Below, one piece after another: positions 2,965 to 60,204 of a stretch of 64,000 bases of DNA (the stretch's first letter is position 1; the number at the start of each line of letters is the position of its first letter). Source of the DNA: Mobula birostris (taxonomy: Eukaryota). The stretch is from NCBI RefSeq assembly GCF_030028105.1, contig NC_092400.1, positions 3,782,001-3,846,000 of the forward strand, in the 5' to 3' direction. Position numbers and translations under genes: made by a program. The notes under the pieces were generated by a model, which worked only from the letters and a program-made list of their open reading frames with translations, did no database searches and was not told the DNA's origin.

Positions 2965-3080
2965 CTATTTGCAGCGAGATTGACTGATGCCTTTATTCTC
3001 AGGGTTGTATTTTGCTTTCGAGAAGCAGATGGCCGCATTTCGATCACATTCACAGATAAACTTCTCACAGTGACTTTTAC
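2965..3080 (-). CDS. PLA2G1B: sPLA2 copy 1 exon 4 (116 nt, includes stop)
   Basis: Acceptor ttcctttcAG. Encodes (S)[40 protein letters not shown] with the CxCD99 motif. Confidence 0.93.
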
Positions 3081-6000
3081 CTGAAAGGAAGCATATTGAA
3101 AATAATCCATTATATTAATGATACAGTATTTGCCTTGGATTATGAAAGAATGAAAGATAATTTTAAATTTTAATATATTTTGATAATTCAACTTCCATCT
3201 ATATATTATGTGTAACATTCTAATCTTTATATAAATGTTCTGTAAATCATTTAAAATACTAATTGTAATTTGGGTTTTTAATTTCATTGTGATGACCTCA
3301 TCATTTCTAGAGTCAATGGATCCTTTTAAACTGATGTCAGACTTGTATTGACATCAGAATAACACATCCTATGAAGATCTACACCACAATCATAGCTGAG
3401 TTATTGTGGAAAAGATTCTAGAAAAGTCCCTGGTGACCCCTAGCCCTTCACCACTGAGTGGCTCCAAGCAGCAGCCTTGGATCTTGCCTCTGACTCTGAG
3501 GTTTCAGTCCCACTGCAGTGACATTAACACAAACTGCAAGAGTGATATTCCACTGTGCTCCTGAGGGAGAAGTGACTCCATCTCTCTCCTGACTGTTAAA
3601 CTGAGCATATTTTTCATCTGTCTGGTGAGGAGATTGTATGTAACAAAAGAGCTTGGGAGAACCTTCTTTTAATGTGATCAGAATTGTCCTGCAAATATCA
3701 GCTCAGATATTTTATCTGGTCATGGTTCCATTGGGATCTTGCTGCAATCAAACTGGTCACAACATTTCTATTGCATTCTGTAAAATGCTGAGGTGAAGTG
3801 ATGCAAAAATATTCCTCCTTTTATTCATCTGAATCCATTTTCTGTGGGTGAATTTTGAAACCACAGCAGGGATCACAGGACAGATATGAAGAGGGTGTTT
3901 CCTGTACTGATGGGAAATAGAACCAGGGGTCACTGGCGCAGATTAAGGGCAAGCCATTGAGGGTTCAAACTGGGGGAAGATCCTGTGCCAGGGGGCTGTG
4001 GATGCCATGAATTCACTCAAAACTGAAGCTGATTGAAATTGATAAATTGGAGGAATCTGGGAATATTGAGATAAGTCAGGAAAAATTGTTGAGCAAGAAG
4101 ATAAACCTATATCTTGACAAATAGTGCAGCAGGCATTCAGAGCCAAATATTTACTCAATCTACTATTTCAAATGATTTTTGATGGTGTCAGTGCTACCAG
4201 ACGGTACTTACTCATCAATAATGCTCAGTTCATAATTTGCTCTCTGCATATGATCCAGCAATATCTGGGCCCTGACCACTAGCTGGTGAGTAACATTAAC
4301 AACACACACGTGTCAGACAATAACCATCTTCAAATAAGGAGCGTAATTCAGCCATCTTTCACGTCCCTAGAGTCGTAAAGGTTTTGCAGCTCTGAGCCAG
4401 GCTCTTCGGCCCAACTCATCCATGCTGACCCACTGTCTTTCTATGCTATCCCATCTGTCTGCACTTGGCCCAGATTCCTCTAAAGCTTTCCAACTATCTT
4501 TGAAACATTGTAATTGTTCCCATCTCCTTTGCACCTTCTACATACCCAGCAGCCTCTGGGTGAACAAGTTGTTCCTTTTAAATCTTTTTCTACTCCCACG
4601 TTAAACCTAGACCTCTAGTTTTAGACTTTCCTGTCTTGGAAAACGGCTGTGATTGTTTATTTTATCTATGCCTCTCATAATTCTCAGGTGTGTATAGTCT
4701 TCCTTGGATTGGTTACCCTTTATGTCCCATAAGCTGCCTCAGGAAGGAGTTGTCCAGTATTAAGGATCCTCACCACCCAGTACATGCCCTCTTCTCATTG
4801 TTACCATCAGGAAGGAGGTACAGAAGCCTGAAGGCACACACTTCAAGAGCAGCTTCTTTCTCTCTGCCATCTGATTTCTAAATGGACATTAAACTTATGA
4901 ACACTACCCCATTACTTTTTTAATTCCTTTTTTTGTACTACGTATTTAATTTAACTATTTAATAAACATATATGTAATTACTGCCATTCAGTTTATTTCT
5001 GTATGTATCAGGAGTGGAGAGAATGAGCAATTTCAAGTTCCTGGGTGTCAATATCTCTGACGACTTAACCAGGTCAGTACATATCGGTGCAGCTATAGAG
5101 AATATAGAAACATAGAAATTTAGAAACATAGAAACACAGAAACCCTACAACACAATACAGGCCCTCGGCCCATAAAGCTGTGGCGACCATGTCCTTCCCT
5201 TAAATATTACCTAGAGTTACCCATAGCCCTCTATTTTTCTAAGCTCCATGTATCTATCCAGGAGTCTGTTAAAATACCCTATCATGGGTCTTCCGCCTGT
5301 AGCTCAATGGAGTGATATATAAATGTTGTGGCTGCCTTTAATCCCTCCTTTTCCCCAGTCTAAACTTTGAATTATTCAACTTTTATTTTTTGGATCTGGG
5401 AGGGAAATAGTGGTCATTATGTCGTATCCTTTAAGAAGTGGAAAACAGCCTTTTGAACCCAGCAATGGAAAGGGAAAAACATCGAAAGAAAAATCAGAAG
5501 ATATGCCTGCCTGGGCTGAGCGTTTGCAACGTGCGTTGATGGGTCTCGACAAGGAAATAGACAATAACACTTCTGAGTTGAAGTCGTTCCGACAGAGTTT
5601 ACAGACTATTGAGGAAAATATTGTTTCCTTGAATACTGAGTTTAAAGAATCGAAATGTCAGATTGCGGATATTTCAACCCGATTGGAACAGACTCAACGC
5701 AAAATTGTCGATTTATACGCAAGGTTGCGTAGGAATAACATTCGTATTGTGGGTCTTCAAGAAGGCTCCGAGAATGGGAATTTATTGGATTACTTTGCCA
5801 ATCTGTTTCAATCCCTGTCCTGGATATTCTATCTCAGCCTCCCGATATTGAAAGAGCTCACAGAATTTTCACTTCGTCAGATAAAGCTCGACCAATTTTA
5901 GTCAACTTTCTTCGCTTTAAAGTTAAAGACCAAATCATAAAATGTGAAAGAAAACAGAAAGTTTTTAAATTTAACGGTTCCGAGATCCGTTTTTATGAAG

Positions 6001-58556: not shown

Positions 58557-58590
58557 ATGTTGGGCCTGTTTGTCCTGCTTCTGCTCTCAG
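58557..58590 (+). CDS. PLA2G1B: sPLA2 copy 3 exon 1 coding part
   Basis: [11 protein letters not shown] followed by G|GTAAGG. Confidence 0.9.
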
Positions 58591-60204
58591 GTAAGGAGAC
58601 TCTCCTCGAGTGAGCCTTACTTTGATGTTGGTTGCTTCATGTTCTAACCTGTTTGTGTCTGTCTGGTTCTCTCTCTCCGGATGTAGCTGGTGCTGAGAGT
58701 GCTTCCATTGAGTCCAGGAACCTCATTCAATTCAGTAATATGATTTCATGCGCAATACCAGGCTGCAGCGCACTACTGAGATTCAATGACTACGGCTGTT
58801 ACTGTGGACCTGGTGGATCTGGGACACCAGTGGATGACCTTGACCGGTAGGTGGACAGACAATCTCTACAGAGCCAGTTACCATCCGTTGGAGTCCAGGG
58901 ACAGGGAAATGTTCTTATTCATTGTCAGAGGCAGTAGGATTAAATCTTCCCTGAAGCTTTAAAATACCCCATTAAATCTCCCAATGTGAAATATGTTTCT
59001 GATGGTGGTAGTGAGTGACAACATGATGTCATGGGGTTTGCAGCCAGATTATGGTGCCTGCTGTGGCCACATGAATACTGGCTGTGTGTCCTGGAAATAA
59101 TCAGAGAGGGCAATTGCTGATGGTATATCTCACAATCTGCTTTTTGCTGTAGTTGTCAGAACTCTGACTTGAGTTAAGTTCCTGTTGGTGCAGATATGGC
59201 CATGTATTAATGTTCTGTTTGGTGTCACTTTCAGTCCAGAAATTGGTTCCATTGAGTTGGTGACGCGGTCTTTGTTGAAGAATTTTTTGCACCGTGGTTT
59301 TAGCGAGTTGATTTGCTGGAGCCTCTCCAGTGATGGTTTCTGAGATGTGAGCCAGGATCGGGATATGCCTTCTGTCCTGCAGTGATCACGAGAGACAGAT
59401 CACAGATTGGTGCAGCTGGGGCTGAAGGTTTCCTGCTGAGGGTGGGGGAGGACAATGACACTTGCTAGGGCTGGGAGACACTCAGTGCCGGTTGACTTCA
59501 GAGCCCCAGTGATGGAACAGAGGGTAGTGCTGGGTTTGCAGTGCCACCGGTCTGTACAGGAGTTCAGGACTGTGTAGTGGAACACACCGAGGACAGAGCA
59601 GCTGCTCCCAGGGAGGATTCTGTCCTTCTGGAGGATTCAACAGGGGGTTCGATTATGGCAGCACAAGAGAGAACCATGACACAGTAGCTACCTTAGTAAG
59701 GGAGCGAGGAAGGAGAGAGGGCAACCAGCTGGTCGATCAGTCTGTTGCTTGTTGTTGGGTGTTGAACACACACAATCCATAGGAAAAGGGAAAAACTAAA
59801 CATTGGTCACCTTCTCAGGTCTATTGTGGTCATGTCACTAGGAGGAATTCTTTTCCACATTCCTGCCTGAGTCCCCACAGATCCTGATTCTACATCCCAC
59901 TGTGAAGCTCCTCCCCAACTCCCTGGGACGATATGAGCCTGCTCAGTTTGCCTCAGCTCAGATCACCTCCTGACTCTTAGCTCTACATGGGAAGTGTGTG
60001 ACACTGGAGGCTGCTGTAACAGTGTTCTGTTAATTCTAGTCCATGAGTTTTCTACTAAACGTTATCTGTGATTTTACAGGTGCTGCCAGACCCATGACAA
60101 CTGTTATGGTGATGCTGAGAATAAAGAGAACTGCAAAACTGTCTTTTCACCCACAATGGTATATTACCACTGGAGCTGCTCAAAGGGGAAAATCGAATGT
60201 GGTA
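58557..60204 (+). CDS. PLA2G1B: Group I secretory phospholipase A2, copy 3 (partial; exons 58557-58590, 58687-58846, 60080-60204; exon 4 outside the window)
   Basis: Splices to [106 protein letters not shown]... Intron 3 stays homologous to copies 1 and 2 up to the window end. Confidence 0.9.
58687..58846 (+). CDS. PLA2G1B: sPLA2 copy 3 exon 2
   Basis: gtAG|...|GTAGGT; Ca2+ loop YCGPGG; extra Cys16. Confidence 0.95.
60080..60204 (+). CDS. PLA2G1B: sPLA2 copy 3 exon 3
   Basis: ttacAG|G TGC TGC CAG ACC CAT GAC...GGT A|GTGAGT. Confidence 0.95.

Follow-up and report, generated by a model that had tools for sequence, protein, structure and literature searches.

The closest described relatives of the genes considered here are the vertebrate group IB secreted phospholipases A2 (sPLA2s), of which the porcine (1HN4), bovine (4BP2) and human (3ELO) enzymes gave the best PDB sequence and fold matches. 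In snake venom PLA2 genes the exons are more diverged than the introns, and group IIA enzymes are characterized by Lys69 and a basic surface. Our analysis concerns a stretch of 64,000 nucleotides (nt) from the manta ray Mobula birostris (contig NC_092400.1, positions 3,782,001 to 3,846,000; here referred to as the window), for which an original prediction made from the DNA letters had proposed a positively selected PLA2G1B radiation, possibly for venom. Six-frame motif scans and exon mapping revealed three four-exon group I sPLA2 genes with open frames throughout, called c1, c2 and c3 below. Judged by their sequences, these copies are PLA2G1B-derived group I paralogues, not canonical IB enzymes, and belong to an expanded branch specific to batoids; their near-identical introns likely result from gene conversion and not from recent duplication. 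We regard this identity and conversion history, taken jointly, as very probable. The observation that had drawn attention to the locus, divergent mature-protein exons inside near-identical introns, is confirmed, and its interpretation as a whole is partly supported.

Gene c1 spans positions 14626-2965 on the minus strand with all four exons inside the window, c2 spans 31974-40381 on the plus strand, and c3 spans 58557-60204 on the plus strand, with its exon 4 at 64664-64779, just beyond the window (L001). Every splice site between exons is GT..AG in the three copies, and the spliced products correspond to the M. birostris proteins P0011 (c1), P0019 (c2) and P0014 (c3), which automated annotation already lists as 'phospholipase A2-like'.

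14593..14626, minus strand: c1 exon 1 (34 nt), encoding the signal peptide; spliced product identical to P0011
14337..14496, minus strand: c1 exon 2, 160 nt; propeptide with terminal Arg, N-terminal helix, Ca2+ loop
13520..13644, minus strand: c1 exon 3, 125 nt; His48/Asp49, shortened loop, Lys69, beta-wing
2965..3080, minus strand: coding part of c1 exon 4; Asp99, stop
31974..32007, plus strand: c2 exon 1; product identical to P0019, intron 1 joint in run X2
32106..32265, plus strand: c2 exon 2; old lineage, common to stingray proteins
32957..33081, plus strand: c2 exon 3; 691-nt GT..AG joint in runs X1 and X2
40263..40381, plus strand: coding part of c2 exon 4; one codon longer than in c1 and c3
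58557..58590, plus strand: c3 exon 1; product equal to P0014 starting at P0014 Met7
58687..58846, plus strand: c3 exon 2; extra Cys16, 5 nt from c1
60080..60204, plus strand: c3 exon 3; Thr69
33200..33800, plus strand: recent gene-conversion tract in c2 intron 3; 1 difference per 600 nt to c1 and likewise to c3
33366-33668: spurious 100-codon frame in c2 intron 3, inside the conversion tract 33200..33800
12933..13235, plus strand: equivalent noncoding intronic stretch of c1, identical to c2 and c3
60489..60791, minus strand: equivalent noncoding intronic stretch of c3, identical to c1 and c2
58957..59501, plus strand: private insertion in c3 intron 2, about 547 nt, ends approximate

All three copies contain the catalytic network His48, Asp99, Tyr52 and Tyr73 and match PF00068 at 117-126 bits. 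By sequence, each carries 14 Cys residues including the group I pair Cys11/Cys77, with disulfides predicted, and after the signal peptide a short propeptide with terminal Arg, at which cleavage is predicted. The invariance of Cys claimed earlier holds for the 14 canonical residues, and c3 has a 15th Cys at residue 16. In the 30 proteins of the derived branch described below, His48, Tyr52 and Asp99 are present in 30/30 and Tyr73 in 29/30, the Ca2+ loop residues Tyr28, Gly30 and Gly32 together with Asp49 are invariant, and four of the five positions of the pancreatic loop 62-66 are kept, a one-residue deletion being common to all 30. The marks of group IIA are missing: residue 50 is Lys or Asn, and the chain stops one residue past Cys124. 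The AlphaFold model was mediocre (pLDDT 68, below 50 in the Ca2+ loop) and served for the fold match only.

The genomic neighborhood agrees with this assignment. On contig C36, paxillin (1.42-1.44 Mb) is followed by a sirtuin exon at 1.60 Mb (best PDB match 5OJ7, E value of 1e-97, which we take to be SIRT4), the cluster (3.78-4.00 Mb) and a TRIAP1-family gene (4.37 Mb), with 2.2 Mb between the sirtuin exon and the cluster; the human PLA2G1B neighborhood presumably has the same PXN-SIRT4-...-TRIAP1 order. Sequence, neighborhood and annotated M. birostris proteins bear out the earlier view that a cartilaginous fish carries group I sPLA2 paralogues at its PLA2G1B locus. A conventional gene with the full loop and Tyr69 lies near the cluster (C36, 3.99-4.00 Mb), and a second full-loop paralogue lies on contig C3 at 94.47 Mb. 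Three shark records (P0027-P0029) are 211-amino-acid fusions of two PLA2 halves, which suggests a tandem pair, merged by annotation, at the locus matching the C3 gene.

For a fourth copy at C36 3.981 Mb (L005:894-1293), only exons 1 and 2 were found, and Ser, not Arg, precedes its mature start. Since its exon 2 is 92% identical to that of the complete M. hypostoma protein P0032, this copy looks truncated in the present assembly. Further PF00068 loci occur on contigs C1, C7, C11, C13 and C22, and we make no claim that group IIA is absent; at C13 40.90 Mb and C22 51.84 Mb (L037, L038), a whole PLA2 domain with the His-Asp pair intact lies in one open frame.

Probable gene conversion, exon types and the surrounding sequence

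Our recount reproduced the exon differences given in the original prediction. In exon 3 (125 nt), c2 and c3 differ at 18 positions in 13 codons, all 13 changing the amino acid, c1 and c2 at 17 in 12 codons (11 changing), and c1 and c3 at 24 in 16 codons (15 changing). Exon 2 (160 nt) shows 26 differences between c2 and c3 and 5 between c1 and c3, the latter in three codons that all change; the pair c1-c2, for which no count had been given, differs at 23 positions in 18 codons, 6 of these synonymous. The signal-peptide exon is near-identical as reported, with 0-1 nt between the exon 1 pairs. The introns of the three pairs differ at 95/3249, 88/3252 and 73/3244 sites (2.9, 2.7 and 2.3%), against 14-19% in exon 3. 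The 100-codon intronic frame, described as translating identically in the three copies, is identical at the DNA level as well (0/303 in all three pairs); as a gene it was rejected, as it lies in the converted tract and is not conserved in run X4.

Run X4 comes from another organism, and its contigs are short and may mix paralogues. Over four contig pieces, it differs from the c2 introns at 53/788 sites, whereas c1 and c3 differ from c2 at 21 and 18 of the same sites (P = 2e-4 and 3e-5). Within the intron stretch 33499-33769, X4 differs from c2 at 18/271 sites and the paralogues c1 and c3 at 1 and 0, and therefore this stretch appears homogenized, not constrained. Divergence ends at the exon borders. 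Because the introns are converted, we rejected their use as a neutral clock, the yardstick on which the original prediction had relied; moreover, the exon types in part predate the species.

Several comparisons bear on the age of the exon types. At the exon 2 diagnostic sites the intron pattern is reversed, X4 having the c2 letter at 13/22 and the c1/c3 letter at 6/22 among the rows listed. Exon 2 of c2 shows 6 clean synonymous differences per 31-33 sites to c1 and c3, well above the intron level (P of about 3e-4). When the exons are compared singly, the closest counterparts of c2 are stingray proteins or copies from M. hypostoma (5-6 differences, versus 10-13 to c1 and c3). Exon 2 is of one type in c1 and c3 (3 differences), but in exon 3 each of these two pairs with a different copy of M. 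hypostoma. The c2 type is kept between families, with 17/122 differences to P0002 versus 26-28 to its own paralogues, and in exons 2-3 c2 groups with P0004 at a support of 97/95 and with stingray copies at 90/92. Such a mosaic of exon affinities is the pattern expected when conversion acts on older paralogues. It should be noted, as a point against an old origin of the types, that monophyly of the three manta copies was not rejected for exons 2-3 by an approximately unbiased test (p 0.21).

Long retrotransposon-like frames, presumably of the LINE (long interspersed nuclear element) type, occupy window positions 5371-10791 in c1 intron 3 (up to 979 codons) and 48123-51508 between c2 and c3 (up to 690 codons); shorter reverse-transcriptase-like frames lie at 21777-23276, 37079-39000 and 43714-44775. 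A noncoding upstream block is present three times (18209-21692, 28100-31623 and 45073-48129) at 93-95% identity, as part of the duplicated units. Contig C4299 (271 kb; positions 78001-158000) matches the cluster at 98.5-99.8% in a different arrangement (L006-L009, L011-L014), with c3 and c1 in tandem on one strand and an extra exon 4 unit at 105115. Exons 1-3 of c2 were not found on C4299, nor did genome searches recover them there. This contig represents either a haplotype with an inversion and a copy-number change or a misassembly. The three genes are flanked by an inverted pair of Ser/His/Glu-rich short tandem-repeat frames at C36 3757478 (minus strand) and 3876401 (plus strand) (L035 and L020; 984 and 2660 codons); they may represent a minisatellite that marks the two arms of an inverted duplication.

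The derived branch among batoids

Related records were collected by protein searches and cluster look-ups, one search comprising the best 120 of 324 matches; the counts refer to protein records, some of which may be isoforms or mis-models. Among the matches listed, derived-type records number 6 in M. hypostoma, 7 in Hypanus (including two fused models), 5 in Hemitrygon, 2 in the sawfish Pristis, and 7, 6 and 2 in the skates Amblyraja, Leucoraja and Rhinoraja. The shark records covered (Stegostoma, Rhincodon, Cetorhinus, two Scyliorhinus, Pristiophorus, Heterodontus and Heptranchias) contained no derived type among the matches listed, and all were of the full-loop Tyr69 type. A tree of 44 rows separated the derived batoid proteins (30) from those with a full loop and Tyr69 (14) at a support of 100/96 and placed the nine skate copies in a clade of their own (99/97). 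This tree omits the fused models P0001, P0016, P0025 and P0027-P0029, the truncated P0136, the records P0023, P0024, P0125, P0138, P0140-P0143 and P0146, and the C36 4.0 Mb and C3 genes.

Besides the shortened loop, the derived branch is marked at position 69, where Tyr is replaced by Lys in 26, Thr in 3 and Ala in 1 of the 30 proteins, and by the loss of Trp3 in most of them. Net charge is at least +4 in 26/30 derived proteins, compared with -7 to +2 in all 9 full-loop proteins of cartilaginous fish, and reaches +16 in skate copies. We found no description of a batoid PLA2G1B expansion in the open literature, subscription papers being outside this coverage.

The distribution of the branch bears directly on the venom radiation suggested by the original prediction, in which the copies would be tied to the stingray spine; a variant of this idea is that some of them were co-opted later into its secretion. 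The excess of exon over intron divergence does resemble that of snake PLA2 genes. To our knowledge, however, skates and sawfish bear no venom spine, and because the same branch is multi-copy in Amblyraja (7 records), Leucoraja (6), Rhinoraja (2) and Pristis (2), venom as its origin is refuted, by a finding that the original prediction had itself named as fatal to that idea. Nor does any shark listed have a derived-type record, including the spined Heterodontus.

Reports on spine tissue range from mixed to negative. PMC8781517 describes PLA2 (D49) transcripts in stingray spine tissue but minimal or no PLA2 activity in stingray venom, and allows that the transcripts may be non-venom epidermal proteins; one species' sheet in its supplement gives PLA2 matches at about 1 transcript per million or less only. 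Two Potamotrygon spine PLA2 models with isoelectric points (pI) of 9.19 and 8.72 and 7 disulfides are like the derived branch when compared by description (PMC4768133, Table S3), whereas PMC6315956 reports no PLA2 in P. motoro venom tissue. The supplements searched (those of PMC8781517 and PMC4768133, in part) yielded no spine PLA2 sequences, and the literature searches likewise gave no confirmation of the spine status of Mobula or of skates. A venom role, later co-option included, is in our view very unlikely.

Amino acid change among the copies

We analyzed amino acid change with pairwise counts and with codon site models in our own implementation, applied to three sequences. The whole-protein ratio of nonsynonymous to synonymous change (dN/dS) was 1.06-1.94 (kappa 1-2), with no pair significantly above 1, and the M0 omega was 1.3-1.46. 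Exon 3 shows 14-20 nonsynonymous differences per about 95 sites versus 0-1 clean synonymous ones per about 20; the pair c2-c3, with 18 nonsynonymous and 0 synonymous differences, gave the sole nominally significant result (nominal P of 0.003-0.012, uncorrected). Model M2a was preferred over M1a (P = 0.0005-0.001), with 16-22% of sites at omega 8-10, and the comparison gave P = 0.014 after removal of split and indel-adjacent codons.

A less circular choice of sites was provided by the skates. At the 28/123 columns found variable among the skate copies with a single threshold, the proportion of nonsynonymous differences (pN) among the manta copies was 25-36%, versus a mature-protein proportion of synonymous differences (pS) of 7-10% (P = 2e-4, 2e-3 and 3e-5); pN at the remaining 95 columns was 5-8%. 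Skate and myliobatiform copies, although on separate branches, vary at the same columns (rho 0.51, 70 tolerant columns), compared with a rho of 0.22 for full-loop proteins.

Two results count against selection as the cause. With among-site rate classes or double-nucleotide changes allowed, M2a versus M1a gave P = 0.03-0.46 (7/8 planned fits completed, with P above 0.03 in 6/7), and when those 28 sites also supplied pS, significance was confined to c2-c3 (P = 0.028; the other pairs, 0.14 and 0.63). Null models of this kind fit about equally well, as expected if the family underwent relaxed, near-neutral birth-and-death in which old paralogues drift near omega 1 while conversion and multi-nucleotide changes mimic selection. 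The M0 omega, the 9-12 multi-hit codons per pair, the fragmentary fourth copy and the rearranged alternative contig C4299 are also compatible with such drift. It is harder to reconcile with the invariance of catalytic, Ca2+ and nearly all Cys columns over the 30 proteins, with divergence confined by exon borders, with an exon 3 pN above the 6.7% intron distance between organisms (P = 4e-3, 4e-6 and 5e-5), and with conservation of the c2 type between families. We consider near-neutral drift unlikely. Of the positive selection originally claimed, an excess of amino acid change at variable sites is supported, whereas whole-protein dN/dS was not significant and the site-model signal failed some controls. 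Collectively, diversifying selection on the copies is likely rather than proven.

Proposed role and known systems

We propose that the copies act as secreted defense enzymes on gut or skin mucosa, a function that we infer throughout and for which we consider the case evenly balanced. The N-terminal helix, residue 31 and the 62-72 loop are the membrane-binding segments of these enzymes. The product of each gene would be a zymogen; once cut behind the Arg of its propeptide, it would bind membranes through these segments and, using His48/Asp99 and Ca2+, hydrolyze sn-2 acyl bonds. With Lys69 and a basic surface, the enzymes would prefer anionic membranes of microbes or parasites, and copies with different binding faces could cover different targets or evade inhibitors. 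Gene conversion would homogenize the introns while selection keeps the exon 2-3 surfaces different; if the binding faces matter, conversion events overwriting them would be removed, leaving opsin-like divergence peaks over exons 2-3. Two conventional genes (C36 4.00 Mb and C3 94.47 Mb) remain available for digestion, in favor of a defense role. Mouse PLA2G1B is described as an epithelial anthelmintic that kills helminth larvae (PMC5644720), and PMC5706032 cites an antibacterial intestinal PLA2 from stingray.

Several points speak against a defense role. The manta copies are only mildly basic (+5, +4 and +1; pI 7.5-8.5), the Arg-ending propeptide is kept as in pancreatic zymogens, the runs that inform on expression carry no tissue label, and the stingray intestinal enzyme is named group IIA.

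Expression was assessed in seven runs, none of which is on record as RNA and whose contig depth cannot rank genes. In run X1, cover is limited to exons 2-3 at an exon depth of about 270-570, with the 691-nt GT..AG joint at a depth of 387 and loose ends that enter exon 4 of two types; run X2 contains both intron joints at a depth of 3-5. The exons are not covered in run X6, which belongs to the study that produced X1; the gaps in X3 and X6 are no proof of silence. Close relatives thus splice and express these genes in some samples only.

The main rival to the defense role is that the copies are digestive isoenzymes, pancreatic or intestinal zymogens whose binding faces diversified for dietary phospholipids and bile conditions. 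The retained propeptide of c1, c2 and c3 fits this explanation, as do the nearest solved structures by sequence, which are pancreatic pro-PLA2s (E value of 3e-47), and the sample-restricted expression, which would fit one organ. It is further favored by the catshark, in which pla2g1b is pancreatic (PMC8923501). Against it, conventional full-loop genes are still present, and the same columns vary in skates and in the plankton-feeding manta. Also against it, the N terminus of stingray pancreatic PLA2 (PMC3050761, Table 2) is identical to the C3 gene at 13/21 positions, to the C36 full-loop gene at 10/21 and to c1 and c2 at 9/21, in hand counts that constitute weak evidence. On balance, we regard digestion as possible but doubtful.

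Sample-restricted expression would also suit a reproductive role in uterine or egg-case secretions or in sperm, and fast evolution is common among reproductive proteins. Skates lay eggs and rays bear live young, and the branch is expanded in both alike; we consider this role highly improbable.

If the copies do act in defense, a wider scenario can tentatively be drawn. Rays and skates may have built a cationic defense PLA2 family from the pancreatic gene, converging on group IIA-like features, with arms races that run in parallel in skates and stingrays at shared surface sites, and with ancient exon types held against conversion; the family might perhaps be the source of basic spine PLA2 transcripts. 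Recruitment of a digestive enzyme gene to mucosal defense could then be tested in a slowly evolving vertebrate lineage, and caution would be called for in classing stingray spine PLA2 transcripts as toxins. The locus would also be a natural counterexample to 'exons faster than introns' as a venom signature, because conversion yields this pattern in animals without venom spines.

In comparison with vertebrate group IB, the batoid genes have the same 14-Cys pattern with Cys11/Cys77, the Arg-ending propeptide, four exons and presumably the human gene order, but they are multi-copy, with a shortened loop 62-66, Tyr69 replaced, Trp3 mostly lost and basic, fast-varying surfaces. With the elapid group IA venom PLA2s they have in common a group I origin, tandem copies and mature exons more diverged than the introns. 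Unlike these, the batoid branch keeps most of the loop, occurs in lineages without venom spines and owes its intron similarity to gene conversion, and we found no evidence for venom expression. Lys69 and the basic surface make mammalian bactericidal group IIA a possible functional analogue, although the batoid proteins lack Cys50 and the C-terminal extension, have Cys11-Cys77 and a propeptide, and carry a charge of just +1 to +5 in the manta, with a maximum of +16 among skate copies. As in the primate red/green opsins, the introns are nearer to the paralogue than to the orthologue and divergence peaks on functional exons (PMC3924837); unlike the opsins, the batoid PLA2 genes comprise three or more copies, have had exons shuffled from type to type and have expanded anew in each ray family.

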